IMG/VR virus record: IMGVR_UViG_2541047959_000009
From: a virus
Lineage: Duplodnaviria > Heunggongvirae > Uroviricota > Caudoviricetes
DNA length: 64,000 nt
Reading direction: 5' to 3' (one strand)
The notes beneath the pieces are model-generated. The model did no database searches and was not told the origin of the DNA. It worked only from the letters and a program-made list of their open reading frames with translations. Position numbers and translations under genes: made by a program. Position 1 is the stretch's first letter. Each line of letters opens with the position of its first letter. This document shows, in pieces, positions 314 to 62,598 of the stretch.

Positions 314-1414
314 TTATTCCATTTCAAGATCATCAATCTTCACTTCGAGTTCAATACTGGTCGTAAAACCATTATCCGGGCTGACGGTATGAGTCAGAGT
401 CGTAATGGTCCATTCCGCATCATCTATCGGTTGTTTAAAGCCACTAACTTTCACTGGCATTTCCGTGTAAAGATCTGCCCGCCCTTCCGCCAGTTGTAGC
501 GAGAATGACGCAACGCCGCGTTGCAGGCGTTCCCACTGCATTTTCGCTGCCCGTTCAGCGTTGCTCCGGTTGGCATAAGTGCGATTAAGTACCAGCACGT
601 TTTCATCCGTACCCACCAGGTAATCGCCCTGCTTCGCTTCCGGCTCTTTCTTCTGCTTCTTAGTTCTGCGCTTACGCTTCACCGTGGTGCTTTCTTTCTT
701 CGCAGGTTCGCGGGTATGCAACCAGCTGGCAATTACGCCCGTGTAGGCTCCGCGATCTGCCAGGGTAAATCGGTGACTGTCGCCGTCCTTGCGTGTGATA
801 GTGATCACTGGCAGAGGTTTACCAGTGGCGCTTTTGCCCTGCCCCTGCCGGATGAATAACAGATTGCCATTTTTCACCGACGCGATGGCACCGTACTGTC
901 GCGCCAGCCGCATCAGAAAACTGCCGTCACTCTCATTAGTCTGGTCTATATGCTCCACGGGCTTATCCGACAGGTCTTTACCCAGTGCCATCTTCAGCTT
1001 GTGCCGCGCGGCTATTTCCTTCACCACTTCCCCGACGGTGGTCTTATGCCACGATTTTTCACGGCGGGTATTCAGCGTTTCCCGAAAATCAGCACTTCGC
1101 GCCCGGATAGTCAGGCGGTCCGGTGCGCCAGTGTGTTCAATCTCGTCCACTGTGAATGCCCCTTTCGGGAAAAGCGGCTGCCCCTTCCAGCCCAGCGCCA
1201 GCGTAATAACCGCACCACGGCGCGGCAGCACGATTTTTCCGTCAGCGTCATCCAGCTCCAGATCAAGCTGGTCCGCTTCAAAGCCCCGGTTATCCGTCAG
1301 CGTCAAACTCATCAGGCGGTTATCCAGCACAGTGGTGATATCCCTGCCCTCAATACTGATGCTGAATGCGGGAGTTTTGTTGCCTTTGTTAAGCAGTTCA
1401 GAGCTGAAATTCAC
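314..1414 (-). CDS. D: tail protein D (late control gene D)
   Basis: 366-aa ORF, P2 gpD-like, position between ogr and U. Confidence 0.85.
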   Translation of the reverse strand: MNFSSELLNKGNKTPAFSISIEGRDITTVLDNRLMSLTLTDNRGFEADQLDLELDDADGKIVLPRRGAVITLALGWKGQPLFPKGAFTVDEIEHTGAPDRLTIRARSADFRETLNTRREKSWHKTTVGEVVKEIAARHKLKMALGKDLSDKPVEHIDQTNESDGSFLMRLARQYGAIASVKNGNLLFIRQGQGKSATGKPLPVITITRKDGDSHRFTLADRGAYTGVIASWLHTREPAKKESTTVKRKRRTKKQKKEPEAKQGDYLVGTDENVLVLNRTYANRSNAERAAKMQWERLQRGVASFSLQLAEGRADLYTEMPVKVSGFKQPIDDAEWTITTLTHTVSPDNGFTTSIELEVKIDDLEME

Positions 1415-1896
1415 GACAGCAGCCCTCCCACCGTTTTACTGATATCGCTTAAGGCAGACGTTGCCGTGTCCTGCAGATTATTCAGTTGCGCACTGAGATC
1501 ACCGAACATATCGGACAGGGATTCATCCACTCGTTTGAGCGACAGGGTGAACTCAATCCGGCGCGGCATACCGTCGCGGAAAAACTCCGTTTTAGTCTGA
1601 TTCAGTCCCTCAATCACATACATGCCGTAAATCGTGCCGCTGCCTTCAATCAGGGGCCATGCTTTCCCCTGTTCTGCCATCTGCTCCAGTGCCAGCAACG
1701 ACAGCCTGCCGCCTGTTATTTCCGGCATAAGAACACCGGAAAGCGTCAGCATGTCGTTTTCCGGTCCCAGAAACTGCGTGGACGGACGTCGGTTTACCCG
1801 ACTGTTTGCCGCATGTCGCCAGCTGCGTTGATACTGCAGTTCCTGATACGGAACGGTGCGCAGCATAAACACGTACAATCCCAGCACCATCATCAT
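1411..1896 (-). CDS. U: tail protein U
   Basis: 161-aa ORF, 4-nt overlap with D, P2 synteny. Confidence 0.85.
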   Translation of the reverse strand: MMMVLGLYVFMLRTVPYQELQYQRSWRHAANSRVNRRPSTQFLGPENDMLTLSGVLMPEITGGRLSLLALEQMAEQGKAWPLIEGSGTIYGMYVIEGLNQTKTEFFRDGMPRRIEFTLSLKRVDESLSDMFGDLSAQLNNLQDTATSALSDISKTVGGLLS

Positions 1897-4800
1897 GCGT
1901 CGTATCCCCCCTGATCGCTGTAGTTACTCCTGGCTTTTGCCTTCAGCCTGCGTTCACGTTCATCAAGCTGGCGTGCCACCTCCCGCGCAATATCCTGCGC
2001 ACTTTGTCCTGGCTGCGTCTGAATGATGATCTGCGTCGGTGCCTCAATCCGTTGAACGAGTGGCACAGTGGCTGCGCGACTCACAATTGCTTCTCCACCT
2101 TTCGCGGGAAGTGCCAAGGGGTGCAACGGTGGAAGCTCTGCTGGCGCGGCAGCAACGCCCATCATTCCGGCAACAACGGCAGCCAGTGCAGCTGTATTTC
2201 TCCGGCTGGTCACATTTGCCGGGCCGTTAACAATTTCCGGCCCGTTTTCACCGACGATGCCAAACTGCCCGCGCGGGATATACCCGCCGCTGTCATACAT
2301 CCCCGCAAAGCCATATCCCCATGATGGAAAACCACCCGATGGCATCATCACTTTACCGTCTGCATTCACCGTCGCAGGTTGCTGACGCGTCACGCTTTCC
2401 GGCAGTTTTGCCTTTGCGGCCTCTTTACTGACAATGCCGAGCTTCTCCAGCAACCAGGAAACGCCGGATTTCAGGGAGTCCAGCGGATGCATGACCATAT
2501 TCAGCCCTTCCGCCAGTGCCTCCCCGAATCGCCGCCCCATTGCCGCTGCGCTCTGCAGTTCGGCAGAGGTCGACTTAACGGGCGTCAGTAGATCAGTAAA
2601 CCAGCCCCACAGCGCCTGCACTTTGTCGCCAATCCACTGGAACACGGGCTTAAGCGGTTCGAACGCTGCACTGATGGGACCTGCCGCCGCTTTGAATCCT
2701 TCCACCACGCCACCGAGAAATGCGGTGATAGGTTGCCAGTATTTCCAGACAACCAGCGCCACGCCCGCCAGTGCAGTAACCACAAGACCTATCGGACTGA
2801 GCAGAGCACCTAACAGACCAGATATGGCATACAGGGCAACGCGCAGCATCGCCAGTGGACCAGATGCCAGTACTCGCAGCACCGTGCCTGCGGCGGCCAG
2901 TCCACCGCGCAGTACCGCCAGAGGATTCATAAACATCACAGCAACAGCACGTAAACCGGATAATCCAGACCGCAAAAGTGCAACCGGCGCACCTGCTACA
3001 GTTTTCAGGACATTTCCCGTCAGTGATGCCGTGCGGCGCAAAGACGACAACGGCGCAGTAAGTAAACCTGCGGCGTTGCCCGATGAAGCAAGCCCGCGTC
3101 GCAGCAGTGCCAGTGGTGCGCCAGCCAGCCAGGACAACGCGCTGCTGGTTCGAGTTACTGCTGCCGTAACGGAAGATAACGTTTTGATACCCAACACAGA
3201 GAATCCCAGACGGATCACTGCCAGCGGCCCCAGCACTGCAGCCAGCGCCACCGCTAAGGTGCCGAGGCCGACGGTAACCGCAGCCACAACAGCCGATGCT
3301 TTCATCAGTGTGCCTGTCAGTTCCGGGTTAGCTTCCACCCAGCGACGCAACGCCCCCGTGACGCTTTTCACCGTGTACAGAATATCCATCAGCGGCTGGC
3401 GCAGCGTTTCGCCCAGGCTGCTGAAGGTGTTCTGCGCTCCGGTTTTGACCAGCAACCACTGCGCAGAAAGTGAATCCTTGTTAATGTCGGATTCTTTCTG
3501 CATGGAGCCAAGCGCATCATTGCCCGCTGTCAGTTTTAACTGACGCTGCAGTTCCGGCAGGTTGTTTGCCAGTTTCGCCGCGTCATCGCCAAACTCTTTA
3601 CCAAACAACATAGTCATGGCAGACAGGCGCTTGTCCTGCGGCAGCGCGTTTACCTTCTCCAGCACGCGCTGGATGGTTCCCATCGCATCCTTCGTCATCT
3701 GCTTTTCAATCACTTCAGGATTGAGTTTCAGCAGATTCATCCCTTCAAAGAAACTCTTGCTTTGCATGGTGGCAATGGACAATTCACGCACCATCGCGTT
3801 TGCTGCACTGGCTGCAACCTCTGGCGCAGCGCCCAGTGTCAGGAAGGTGGAACCCAGCGCCGCCGCTTTACGATAATCCAGACGGTCAGCCACACCGCCC
3901 AGACGTTGCATCACATCAATGATGTCTGCCCCTTTCGACATGGCGTTATCATCCAGATAGTTCAGCGCATCACCGAGCTGTTCAATATTGCGGGTGGGGA
4001 TTTTGTAGAGCTGGGCGATTTTCCCCAGACTTTCTGACAGTTCATCCGCTGGCAGCTCAAAGGCTGTTGCCGCCTTTGCTGCCGTACTGGCGAAGGCCAG
4101 CAGGTCACGTTTCTGATCTTCCCAGCTGTCGTCAGGGTTTGCGACGTTCATGCGCGCACCACCTTCAACCAGTGCAGCGAAGTCCACCGCACCGTTTTCC
4201 ATCGGCAACTGTTCGCTGGCAGCCTTGATGGCATCCTGCATTTCATAAAAACGTGCAGTGCGGTTGCCATTATCGTCACGCAGACCACTGACCTGCTTTG
4301 CCACACCTTTCATGGCATCTTCCATGCTGGTATAGCTTTTTACTGCCGCCATCACTGGCGCACCCATTGCCAGCCCTGCAGCCGTGGTGGTGGCTCCGGC
4401 ACCTGCAATACGATCACGCACCTCCAGCGAACGGGCATAACTGGCACGCGCTGCATTCATCCTGCGCTGAGCTTCCCCCAGTCGCTTCAGCCGCGCCTCC
4501 TGTTTCGAAAGTTCCTGGTTATAACGTGATGTTTCACGGGCTAAACGGGCAGTTGCTCCCGCATCGTCTTTCGCAGAAATTCCCGCCCGGTACAGTTCAG
4601 CACGCACAAGCGCCGTCTGCCGCTGCAGCTTTTTCTGGCGTTCTTCCAGGCGCTGAACAGCCAGCCGTTGACGGCCCAGAGCAACAACCTGACGTTGCGA
4701 AGGCGGCCCCATCGCTCCCAGTTCCTGACTGAGCAAATTTGCACGCTGGCGGGCATAGTTCAGCCTGTCGCCTAATTTCTGATTTTCTGCCTGCAGCTTT

Positions 4801-58999: not shown

Positions 59000-59101
59000 T
59001 TAAAGTGGGATCTAACTCTAATAATTTAAAAAATTTAATTGGGTCTTGATATTAATCACATAGACTCAATGCTCTTTAGTTCTTACATAGGTGGTTGTAT
59101 T

Positions 59102-59542
59102 ATGAGTATCCCCAGTTTAGATGTTCATAAAGTTGTTAAGTGCGCAGAGCATAAAAAGGCTTTAGATGCAATATCTCTCAAACTTAAGAATAACATTATT
59201 GACTCAAGCTCTGAATACGATTTTCTTGGCGACACAATAATTTTCAATAAAGATAAAAAAAATAGGTTAACCCTCAAACTTTCAACATATGAACTAGAAC
59301 TTATTTTCAAAGAAACACTGCTAGTCATTGATGAAGCTCCTGTATTGAAGTTTGCTGCCATTGACCCAACCGATGAAAATAACAACGAGCTGATTGATTT
59401 ATTTTTATCCAAAGGTGGATTTATTTATATTAGAGAATACAAATCCGAGCCACATTATGAGTATGGCGACACTTCTCTATTTTTACATATACTTGACGCT
59501 ACTCTTAAAGAGCTTAAATCTGCAAACAAAATATCCTATTAA
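59102..59542 (+). CDS. hypothetical AT-rich moron protein
   Basis: ORF 59039-59542 trimmed to MSIPSLD Met; opposite strand to all flanking phage genes. Confidence 0.55.
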   Translation: MSIPSLDVHKVVKCAEHKKALDAISLKLKNNIIDSSSEYDFLGDTIIFNKDKKNRLTLKLSTYELELIFKETLLVIDEAPVLKFAAIDPTDENNNELIDLFLSKGGFIYIREYKSEPHYEYGDTSLFLHILDATLKELKSANKISY

Positions 59543-59648
59543 ATAAATTTTTGCTAACATAGCCCCGCGCCATGACAAGATTTTCTGTTCTAGATGCAAG
59601 GGCTATGTGTGAATATCTATAAACAAAAACCCCATCCGGTGATTTTTG

Positions 59649-59873
59649 TCATTTTTTAGCCATCTCAATTGCGGCATCAAAAAGTCGTTCAAGAATAAAA
59701 TCAGGGTACTGTAATTTTTCTTGCTCGATATGAAGCTCATAAATTTTCCCTTCCCACTCCCATTTAAAATTAAATCCAGAAGCAGAAGGTGCGAAATGTG
59801 TTTTAGCTTTAGGGTTAGCGTAACCAGCAACAGTCAACACATCAAACTTAAAATCTTGAGGTTTAATACGCAT
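59649..59873 (-). CDS. hypothetical AT-rich small protein
   Basis: ORF 59649-59900, convergent with 59102-59542. Confidence 0.45.
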   Translation of the reverse strand: MRIKPQDFKFDVLTVAGYANPKAKTHFAPSASGFNFKWEWEGKIYELHIEQEKLQYPDFILERLFDAAIEMAKK

Positions 59874-59970
59874 AATCATATCCTTTGCCAAGTTCATCAT
59901 TATTCTTCTCGATTATAAAACAATGAATAAAATCATTAAAGCATAGACGTTAAATATCCTCAAAATGTGA

Positions 59971-60408: not shown

Positions 60409-60881
60409 ACCTGAATCTCTTTGACCGTTCCGCCGGCTTCTTTGAATTTTGCAATCAGGCTGTCAGCCTTATGCTCAAACTGACCATAACCAGCTCCCGG
60501 CAGTGAAGCCCAGATATTGCTGCAACGGTCGATAGCCTGACGAATATCACCGCGATCAATCATCGGTAAAGCACCACGCTCTTTAATCTGCTGCAGTGCA
60601 ACAGCATCCTGGCTTTTTGGAGAGAAGTCTTTCAGTCCAAGCTGTTTACGGTATGCATCCCACCAGCGGGAAAGAAGCTGGTAGCGCCCGGCAGCCGTTG
60701 ATTTGAGTTTTGGGTTTAGCGTGACAAGTCTGCGAGGGTGATCGGAGTAATCAGTGAATATTTCTCCGCCCACAATGACGTCATAACCATGATTACGTGT
60801 CGGTTGTAGCCCATTATCCGTTCCTTCTGACCAGGCCACCATATCGAGGAAAGCTTTACGCTGAGGATTAAGATTTTGCAT
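60405..60881 (-). CDS. R: lambda R-like endolysin (lytic transglycosylase)
   Basis: 158-aa ORF very similar to lambda R ([17 protein letters not shown]). Confidence 0.9.
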
Positions 60882-61173
60882 TTTTCACCCCTGTCAGTCG
60901 TTCCCAGAAGTACGTCAGTGCAACCGAACCCATCGCACCACTAATCCCCGCAGTTGCGAGAATCATGTAAATACTGAATCCACTTTCGATACTGATTAGG
61001 CCACCAATAACACCGGTGAATCCTGATACAACTATCTGAGCGAGGGCATTTATCCAGCTCCACGTTGCTTTACTCTGCTTCACATCAATCAGGTAACGGA
61101 CAAGCCCCCCCCAACCTGCGATGATCAGCAAAACAAGCCAGAACGCTCCGGCAAGATTCTCTTTTTCGTGCAT
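60868..61173 (-). CDS. S: holin
   Basis: ORF 60868-61272 trimmed to MHEKENL Met; three hydrophobic segments; directly upstream of endolysin. Confidence 0.7.
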   Translation of the reverse strand: MHEKENLAGAFWLVLLIIAGWGGLVRYLIDVKQSKATWSWINALAQIVVSGFTGVIGGLISIESGFSIYMILATAGISGAMGSVALTYFWERLTGVKNAKS

Positions 61174-61290
61174 ATGAATAGCCGCAGTTTCGCCTCCGAC
61201 AGAAAATCGGAGCGTGAAATGATATGTTGATTTATTATTAATTCGAAAATTACATTCTAATTCATCAGGCATTGATGATTTTATAATAAT

Positions 61291-61313
61291 AAAGGCCGTT
61301 CGTTACGGCCTTT
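61291..61313 (-). terminator. hairpin terminator after acidic moron gene
   Basis: 8-bp stem AAAGGCCG/CGGCCTTT with 7-nt loop. Confidence 0.5.
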
Positions 61314-61324
61314 ATTATTGATAT

Positions 61325-61660
61325 TTATTTTACATCCCAAGGTAGTTCCTCAAGAGAGAAGACTAATTCATTATCAATAATTTCGTATTCTGCATAACCT
61401 TCAACCTCTCCTGAGAAGTTATTGTCAACGCATCCTTCATAATAGCTATATGGTGCTATAAAGTGAAACCCATATTCATCTATCTCTGTGATTTCAAAAT
61501 TGTAGTAATCGTAAGAATATCGAATATCATCATCAGAAATAGAACTAAGTACATAGTTATTAAATTTATCGGAATGCTTAACGATAAGTTCTGACAACGC
61601 GTCAAGATTCTCTGGAGAGATATTTCCTAACGGTAATCTGTACTCAACGGCATTAATCAT
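61325..61660 (-). CDS. hypothetical highly acidic 111-aa protein (moron at Q-S junction)
   Basis: AT-rich ORF with ~27 Asp/Glu versus ~6 Lys/Arg; between Q-like gene and holin. Confidence 0.6.
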   Translation of the reverse strand: MINAVEYRLPLGNISPENLDALSELIVKHSDKFNNYVLSSISDDDIRYSYDYYNFEITEIDEYGFHFIAPYSYYEGCVDNNFSGEVEGYAEYEIIDNELVFSLEELPWDVK

Positions 61661-61713
61661 ACAACCTCCTTTTTAACTGATATGAGGTTATATAATGTGT
61701 TTCAGTACAAGTA

Positions 61714-61739
61714 AATAAAAACCCGCTCAACAGCGGGTT
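61714..61739 (-). terminator. tR'-like terminator downstream of Q-like gene
   Basis: Stem ACCCGC/GCGGGT followed on minus strand by TTTTATTT. Confidence 0.55.
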
Positions 61740-61845
61740 CGTGAAAATTATCAACGGCAGACATACAAAGCCCATCGTTGAGAAAATCTTATCCATATTT
61801 TTTGAAAAATGCAAGCTTCATGTCACTATCTTCGGCGAAAATCAC

Positions 61846-62598
61846 TTATCTCGTCACCTTTCTCAATTGTGTTTCAGCATATGCTTCTTCCTGCCAGCAC
61901 TTTGTTACTAGTTTATCAATTACGTCTGCATATCCTTTGTACCACTGATAATCAGTCAGGTCTGGAACCAGCTTCTGGACATGACGTCGTGCCAGTGTAG
62001 TCGGTAAACGGCTAAACCGGTTTCCATTGCAACGCCCACAAGTCTTATAAACAGGCGTGCCATGAAGCCGGGTTCTTTTTTCATCCAGGACAATACCTTT
62101 ACCCTTACACCCTCTGCACGCCGTGCTGACTTCTCCCTTGCCATGACAATGCTGACACAGTTCCTTCACCCACTCTTCTTTGATAACGGATTCCCCGCTT
62201 CTGGAATGTTTCACCACTTCGCGCAATACATTATGAAATCCAGTACCAGTACAATGCTCACAGCGAGCCTTACTTGCCGCAGACCTGGAATAATCAGCAA
62301 AGGCAAAATTCACAAGGTAAGGGATGATCTGTAACCGGGTTTCTTCACTCAATTTGTTCAATGTCGGGTTATCCAGTGCCATCGCGTAATTGAGCAGGCC
62401 TTCAATCGCAAACTGAGGATCCTGAACACCAACTTTTGCCAGGAATAAGGCAAACCCAAGCGGTGCTTTCGACTGCACCATCCCCTGCGCAGCCATTACA
62501 TCCGTAATTGTTAAACCACCCGAGCCTGTCGCCGATGCGTCATCGCTCAATTTTGGAGATTTTGGGGAGTAATATTTCGGTAAGGCTTCAAGGTTCAT
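61846..62598 (-). CDS. putative late-gene antiterminator (Q-like) with DnaJ-type zinc finger
   Basis: ORF 61846-62640; four CxxCxGxG repeats; position immediately upstream of the lysis cassette. Confidence 0.5.
   Translation of the reverse strand: MNLEALPKYYSPKSPKLSDDASATGSGGLTITDVMAAQGMVQSKAPLGFALFLAKVGVQDPQFAIEGLLNYAMALDNPTLNKLSEETRLQIIPYLVNFAFADYSRSAASKARCEHCTGTGFHNVLREVVKHSRSGESVIKEEWVKELCQHCHGKGEVSTACRGCKGKGIVLDEKRTRLHGTPVYKTCGRCNGNRFSRLPTTLARRHVQKLVPDLTDYQWYKGYADVIDKLVTKCWQEEAYAETQLRKVTR

Follow-up and report, generated by a model that had tools for sequence, protein, structure and literature searches.

The interval between Q and S of lambdoid phages (the Q-S interval) is a site of late-expressed cargo such as Shiga toxin (Stx), and the locus described here raises the question of what kind of cargo it carries in this interval and what the product might do. 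The locus lies in a stretch of 64,000 nucleotides (IMG/VR record IMGVR_UViG_2541047959_000009; this whole stretch is referred to as the window), which originates from an SfV-like lambdoid prophage of extraintestinal pathogenic Escherichia coli. Between the Q antiterminator gene and the holin gene the minus strand carries an AT-rich cassette with a gene for an extremely acidic protein of 111 amino acids (aa). Examination of its boundaries, composition and terminators revealed that this cassette is a genuine autonomous moron in the classical sense, while for its product we tentatively favor a role as a binder of a host or competitor protein. The features that delimit the cassette are the following:

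61206..61716, minus strand: AT-rich inserted cassette (moron), approximate extent about 510 bp, from homology break points and guanine-plus-cytosine (GC) content
61325..61660, minus strand: gene of the acidic 111-aa protein (ATG start; WP_000606308.1; PHROG 13663 family)
61719..61740, minus strand: tR'-like intrinsic terminator just 3' of Q (terminator scan; T-tract to about 61712)
61284..61320, symmetric, no single strand: bidirectional intrinsic terminator hairpin of the cassette, directly 3' of the acidic open reading frame (terminator scan)
61846..62598, minus strand: Q antiterminator gene, 250 aa (PF03589 Antiterm, E=2.7e-54, and PHROG 127; the mechanically called open reading frame reaches 62640)
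60868..61173, minus strand: holin, first gene of the lysis cassette (PF16083 Phage_holin_3_3, E=7.5e-22; UTI89 annotation)

Read along the minus strand, the order is Q, terminator, 111-aa open reading frame (ORF), second hairpin, holin, GH24 lysozyme and Rz. The similarity to the Q modules of SfV and Stx phages ends at 61717 and that of the holin module to phage PhiR47_2 (92%) ends at 61205, with GC contents of 30-37% found in windows mostly within 61206..61716. The cassette is inserted between genes that are otherwise adjacent. In PhiR47_2, which encodes a 92%-identical holin, Q lies directly before this gene and the gap consists of about 300 nt of non-coding DNA with no ORF, while the corresponding position is filled with other cargo in SfV (orf47 and orf48 after a homologous Q and terminator module) and in phiSTEC1575-Stx2k (three tRNAs and stx2AB after a module of about 89% nucleotide identity). 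Its base composition deviates as well, with 33% GC in the acidic ORF compared to 45-55% in the neighboring genes and 51% in the window. Finally, it has a terminator of its own, the hairpin at 61284-61320 with a folding free energy (dG) of -20.2 kcal/mol and a z-score of -7.5, whose minus-strand tail is U-rich; equivalents, in the form of a GC-rich hairpin and a T-run just after the stop codon, were present in most of the homologous prophage copies inspected. The cassette fits the classical moron definition because deviant composition, insertion between adjacent genes and an own terminator are all present.

DNA matches in isolated phages were limited to the end of Q and its terminator (61717-61860, 83-90% identity) and included SfV, mEp460, phiSTEC1575-Stx2k and 15 Stx2c-converting phages. 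The Q-side terminator (9-bp stem followed by a T-run, dG -14.9 kcal/mol, z -4.4) shares about 89% identity with the terminator annotated in phage SfV, and the counterpart of the Q gene in UTI89 carries the RefSeq label 'antitermination protein'. An earlier note on this DNA, made from its letters, had described the arrangement as a moron-type cargo cassette in the slot that carries stx, with a Q-like gene and tR'-like terminator upstream and an own hairpin downstream. The terminator scan and the folding energies agree with this description, insertion, composition and terminator identify the cassette as a moron, and the statement that the slot is used by stx is correct because a homologous Q and terminator module precedes stx2 in phiSTEC1575-Stx2k. 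The same note had noticed an acidic, aromatic-rich and AT-rich ORF at this junction, which we find as well; the strong acidity that it expressed as 27 acidic versus 6 basic residues holds, while the actual counts are 24 and 5.

The protein contains 24 Asp and Glu, 5 Lys and Arg, 2 His and 19 Phe, Tyr or Trp residues and has an isoelectric point (pI) of 4.05. A six-frame comparison of the window's 152 ORFs with 90 aa or more shows it to be by far the most acidic per residue, with a net charge of -19 over 111 aa (the next has -12 over 114 aa), and it is the most aromatic among the eight most acidic of these ORFs. Direct reading of the sequence revealed no signal peptide and no hydrophobic or membrane segment. 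RefSeq labels WP_000606308.1 as a hypothetical protein, and literature searches by accession, peptide string and topic found nothing on it.

The protein matches PHROG 13663 from end to end (residues 1-111 against profile positions 1-111 of 111, E=9.4e-54); this family is without annotation, and membership therefore gives no function. A stretch of 661 bp that surrounds the gene is 100% identical in UTI89, S88, IHE3034, NU14, APEC O18, ATCC 11775 and others, and it is present in full in 131 of the 5426 complete E. coli genomes. Salmonella and Citrobacter encode close homologs with 72% and 69% identity, respectively. Among 1.8 billion representative proteins a profile search retrieved 26 clusters at 50% identity, and another profile search, of an indexed collection, gave 27 clusters at 90% identity. 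The family comprises about 45 protein clusters across Enterobacterales, with Enterobacter, Citrobacter, Salmonella, Erwinia and Duffyella among the named sources. A lack of conservation beyond this prophage, which the earlier note had listed among what would speak against its proposal, was not observed, because the gene is conserved well beyond it.

Nearly all members are 106-118 aa long, and the full-length ones all have a pI of 4.05-4.99 and a net charge of about -7 to -22. The conserved columns are F33, D45, R47, Y48, F55, Y73/Y74, G76-C77, D79, Y92, D/E104-E105 and W108, and the motifs 'D.RYS', 'YY.GC.D.N' and 'LDET.W' recur within the family. Conservation reaches 70% or more in twelve aromatic columns and is almost complete at Cys77, and position 47 is basic in 64% of an alignment of 25 sequences, commonly as Arg47. 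The negative charge is conserved as a bulk property because only five columns are positionally acidic. Comparison of the E. coli and Salmonella copies revealed saturated synonymous sites (proportion of synonymous differences, pS, 0.79; of nonsynonymous differences, pN, 0.17), and the Salmonella and Citrobacter copies differ with a ratio of nonsynonymous to synonymous substitution rates (dN/dS) of 0.28. These substitution patterns indicate that the acidic ORF is protein-coding and under purifying selection. The possibility of a spurious ORF was rejected on the basis of this selection and of the conservation of the family.

The position of the gene is maintained across its relatives. The order of a gene at the Q position, the acidic gene and a holin was found in five places in Salmonella, five in Citrobacter, two in Enterobacter, one in Duffyella and two in a metagenome-assembled lineage. 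A scan for related loci with a sub-alignment identified 23 loci in IMG/VR and only one, in Erwinia, in the genome collection. At 21 of the 23 IMG/VR loci the next gene encodes a holin or a DNA methyltransferase and a Q-type gene or a gene at the Q position lies upstream. The series Q, acidic gene and holin accounts for 17 loci, with the gap before the acidic gene fixed at about 155-195 nt and the gap after it at about 100 nt, while at four others (L044, L045, L047 and L048, from two lineages) a methyltransferase gene follows about 180 nt after the acidic gene:

L044 4513-5565 and L047 4515-5564: PF01555 N6/N4 DNA methyltransferase in the Q-S slot, 350 aa

In L044 the holin, lysozyme and Rz genes come after this methyltransferase. 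At the remaining two loci (L046 and L049) an unannotated protein occupies the Q position upstream, and the holin downstream in L049 is of the P21 type. Both neighbors vary in family, with PF03589, PF06576/DUF1133, PF06530 or unannotated proteins encoded upstream and PF16083, PF16931 (with PF05449) or PF04971 holins encoded downstream. Outside intact prophages three exceptions were found. One belongs to a degraded Erwinia tracheiphila prophage, and the other two are solitary copies, the first near sbcB, where about 1 kb to either side contains no partner ORF, and the second near dsbB/fadR. No toxin, Rhs/CdiA or conserved partner gene was adjacent at the approximately 50 loci inspected, which span at least seven genera as well as metagenomes.

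Several observations concern other cargo of these prophages and of the window. Late-expressed orphan methyltransferases in the Q-S slot may indicate an anti-restriction theme of this hotspot. In L044, a Salmonella/Citrobacter-type prophage, a three-gene insert (1473-3027, minus strand; 140, 89 and 289 aa) lies between Q and the acidic gene and may represent cargo or a defense module. A Citrobacter freundii prophage with a family member (L007) encodes a 364-aa protein with a PF01024 pore-forming colicin domain in its early region upstream of RusA (1181-2275, minus strand), and the early-right region of another family-carrying prophage (L023) encodes a 624-aa NACHT/NB-ARC protein of Avs-like architecture (575-2449). 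The window itself contains a second AT-rich island (59000-59970, GC about 30-37%) between Rz and the HNH/terminase genes. Its ORFs at 59039-59542 (plus strand, 167 aa, not annotated in UTI89) and 59649-59900 (minus strand, annotated as 59649-59873, WP_001220676.1, hypothetical) are both without a Pfam or PHROGs match, and the island resembles a moron-type cargo slot after the lysis cassette.

The DNA directly upstream of the acidic gene carries two further features of the cassette:

61687..61715, minus strand: promoter-like block TTTACT-N17-TATAAC immediately 3' of the terminator T-tract, suggested by conservation
61665..61671, minus strand: strong Shine-Dalgarno sequence AAGGAGG, spacer of 4 nt to the ATG, read from sequence

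The Salmonella and Citrobacter copies keep TTTACA-N17-TATAAC amid diverged surrounding bases. Distant lineages have in common a block of about 45 nt, CATTTCTGAYTTAAAAAA.ATTTYTGACATAAC, right after the T-tract of the preceding terminator; next comes TAnnnT (TATGCT, TAGGAT, TAGCAT, TAAGAT or TAATAT), with N15 between it and the TTGACA-like hexamer. The upstream block moves with the acidic gene even where other cargo intervenes after Q (L044 and L047). A strict sigma-70 scan does not call these promoter-like blocks, which miss the strict consensus because their spacer is 15 nt long or because position 6 is a C. Taken from these conserved elements, the acidic gene probably has its own promoter. 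A sigma-54 promoter and a LexA box were considered for the conserved upstream block and rejected, since the GG/GC elements of the former and the CTG...CAG elements of the latter are absent in most copies. Structured RNA does not explain the region because an Rfam scan gave only sub-threshold chance matches, IS102 RNA and Trp leader among them. At the expected position of the late promoter PR', after the stop codon of Q and before the terminator, there is a weak sigma-70-like site (GTGACA-N18-AAAAAT, 61797-61826, minus strand), and a transcript from this site to the terminator would be about 75 nt long, analogous to the 6S RNA of lambda.

To describe the protein beyond its composition we used structure prediction and library searches. 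AlphaFold2 reached a predicted local distance difference test score (pLDDT) of 74 with four sequences and of 90.4, with a predicted template modeling score (pTM) of 0.81, with 26 family members. The predicted elements are a strand at residues 3-10, helices at 19-28 and 30-41, and strands at 48-50, 56-60, 64-73, 82-95 and 98-105, and the model resembles a compact cystatin/NTF2-like alpha+beta roll. Proteins with this roll, including VirB8-like domains and ketosteroid-isomerase-like proteins, are the nearest known fold type for the predicted model; the weak structural neighbors retrieved were NTF2-like pocket proteins (ketosteroid-isomerase-like and SnoaL-like), none of which was informative. 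In the strand at 82-95 the residues Glu 85, 87, 91 and 93 alternate with V86, G88, A90, Y92 and I94, a periodicity which by itself would imply an acidic exposed face of the sheet. Neither NCBIfam nor PADLOC contained a match to the protein, a profile search of the PDB found nothing below E=0.18, and no catalytic domain was matched. A Pfam scan of 25 members gave scattered sub-threshold matches to single members only and no immunity family. The Pfam match to NIR_SIR_ferr was sub-threshold (15.4 bits against a cutoff of 24) and was treated as chance.

With regard to function, the explanation that we tentatively prefer, and regard as possible rather than probable, is that of a stand-alone cytoplasmic stoichiometric binder or decoy that would block a basic, probably nucleic-acid-binding, protein of the host or of a competitor, in the sense of anti-defense or host takeover. 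Q-modified RNA polymerase would read through both terminators, and large amounts of the acidic protein would be produced as late transcription starts, while the promoter-like block may add some expression in the lysogen. From the established mechanism of Q antitermination, transcription at the very start of the late program would be expected because Q-modified polymerase must cross both terminators to reach the holin gene. In the weakest step of the proposed sequence, the cytoplasmic protein would by itself bind its target stoichiometrically or serve as a decoy, and blockade of the target may work by electrostatic DNA mimicry. We infer the decoy role because signal peptide, membrane segment, partner gene and catalytic match are all lacking, the predicted roll is compact and the charge is conserved in bulk. 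An extreme negative charge throughout the family without positional conservation, in a small single domain with neither a partner nor a catalytic signature, makes a decoy or inhibitor plausible, and a DNA-mimic-like way of working is conceivable for a protein whose large negative charge is conserved (net -19 over 111 aa; full-length members at pI 4.05-4.99). The only hint from genomic context toward an anti-restriction theme is that the slot holds a DNA methyltransferase in related phages, with direct adjacency in two lineages.

A number of results weigh against this explanation. The conserved residues look more like a pocket or an interface. Neither the window protein at E values up to 10 nor the 25 members at E values up to 1 matched the Pfam families of Ocr, ArdA, KlcA or ArdB, and no fold similarity to a solved DNA mimic was found, which leaves the proposal of the earlier note that the protein belongs with the known DNA-mimic or anti-restriction families with neither a sequence nor a fold link. 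Classical anti-restriction genes are located in early or leading regions, whereas the acidic gene belongs to the late operon. A tblastn search of 50,697 isolated phage genomes with the window protein or with the distant member P0031 yielded no match, and among 72,556 plasmids there was a single match to a 37.7-kb circular record which is the phage genome itself; the family is thus absent from plasmids. A more specific version of the proposal would see the family as a new, structurally distinct class of single-protein prophage inhibitors, synthesized as soon as late transcription begins and perhaps also in the lysogen. Through electrostatic mimicry such an inhibitor would disarm a host protein that serves in defense or binds nucleic acids, such as a sensor of late structural proteins or an attacker of replicating or packaging DNA, and the position at the head of the late operon would be functional. 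We consider this version doubtful.

The circular record (NZ_CP081716.1, L050) is listed as a 37,667-bp 'plasmid' of E. coli CX04 and is essentially the genome of the window's phage. It encodes a holin and an acidic protein with identical accessions as well as homologous DUF968, KilA-N, RusA, capsid, terminase and Mu-like tail genes, and it suggests either an excised circular replicon of such a phage in CX04 or an assembly artefact.

Other explanations draw on the same features. An orphan immunity protein, expressed from its own promoter in the lysogen, would neutralize the nuclease toxin of competitors (a colicin or pyocin, a contact-dependent inhibition toxin or a type VI secretion system effector) and thereby provide a fitness benefit. 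Many nuclease immunity proteins are small, cytoplasmic and very acidic, as is the protein studied here, and both a cassette with a promoter-like block and its own terminator and the existence of stand-alone chromosomal copies would be in line with such a role. However, no inspected locus has a toxin, Rhs, CdiA, bacteriocin or effector gene adjacent, and the partner toxin that the earlier note wanted looked for was thus not found next to the gene. The sole colicin-domain gene belongs to the Citrobacter prophage, where it is encoded on the opposite strand at a distance of about 2.7 kb, and its domain is a pore-forming one; immunity proteins of pore-forming colicins are membrane proteins. The immunity families of Pfam, NCBIfam and PADLOC did not provide a match for the immunity protein that the note had proposed as an alternative, those of Pfam also not among the 25 members, and the strict position between Q and holin would be left unexplained. 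Overall, we regard an orphan immunity protein as unlikely. The conserved columns, mostly aromatic and joined by the near-invariant Cys77, Asp45 and the often-basic position 47, as well as the NTF2-like pocket proteins among the weak structural neighbors, would fit a ligand 'sponge' or a small Cys-dependent enzyme. Here, a cone-shaped NTF2/cystatin-like pocket lined by Tyr, Phe and Trp residues, Arg47, Asp45 and Cys77 would sequester or modify a small molecule, such as an immune signaling nucleotide, late in infection, a role that we find decidedly unlikely.

The constant position next to the holin in most prophage copies could point to a modulator of late transcription or lysis that tunes Q antitermination, holin timing or endolysin activity. 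Its neighbors, however, come from no fewer than three unrelated families on the Q side and likewise on the holin side, and a specific protein partner among them is unlikely because these families are unrelated; a regulator specific for the holin was considered unlikely for the same difference in holin families. In addition, the gene is separated from the holin by its own terminator and at four loci by a methyltransferase gene, chromosomal copies exist without any lysis genes, and related phages function without the acidic gene, all of which renders a modulator improbable. An effector released by lysis and acting outside the bacterium, analogous to Stx, might be suspected from the occupation of the stx slot and from the dominance of well-known extraintestinal pathogenic strains (such as UTI89, S88, IHE3034, NU14 and APEC O18) in the list of 131 of 5426 E. 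coli genomes, for which it would be a virulence or host-interaction factor. Plant-associated and environmental Erwinia and Duffyella, as well as Enterobacter and Citrobacter, encode family members, though, and the protein lacks both a signal peptide and any resemblance to toxins or effectors, which makes an effector highly improbable.

The Q-S junction is the slot for the most consequential cargo of lambdoid prophages, Shiga toxin, and the acidic family represents a second, widely distributed occupant. Its predicted structure is confident and without a match, and it is present in the readily manipulated uropathogenic and neonatal-meningitis strains UTI89, S88 and IHE3034. If the protein were an anti-defense factor or decoy, it would add a late-expressed class to the counter-defense genes of phages, while an orphan immunity factor would constitute a new kind of lysogenic conversion. 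At present the gene is a well-delimited candidate for functional screens and not a discovery, and its appeal for such screens lies in its consistent placement first in the late operon whichever unrelated Q and holin modules flank it, its conserved regulatory flanks and its confident orphan fold.

Among known systems, T7 Ocr, ArdA and KlcA/ArdB are likewise small, stand-alone, extremely negative and encoded on mobile elements, although Ocr is helical and the model predicted for the acidic protein is rich in beta strands. SfV orf47 and orf48 and the methyltransferase cargo in the Q-S interval of Stx phages occupy a common slot after a homologous Q and terminator module, and the PF01555 methyltransferase of L044, L045, L047 and L048 equals SfV orf48 in its length of 350 aa. 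Unlike SfV, the prophage in the window has no methyltransferase in this slot, and the tblastn search of isolated phages did not detect SfV orf47 (64 aa) as a family member. Morons were defined for lambdoid phages (Hendrix/Juhala), with HK97 gp15 and lambda bor and lom as examples. Their characterized products are unrelated to the acidic protein, which is located in the cytoplasm rather than in the membrane or periplasm and is not a toxin. The protein belongs to a catalogued, unannotated family without a Pfam model, and the element itself is a moron of the usual kind at a hotspot already well known for its cargo; it resembles the other morons of lambdoid phages and stxAB in its ribosome binding site, ORF, terminator, probable promoter, deviant composition and location in the Q-S slot.
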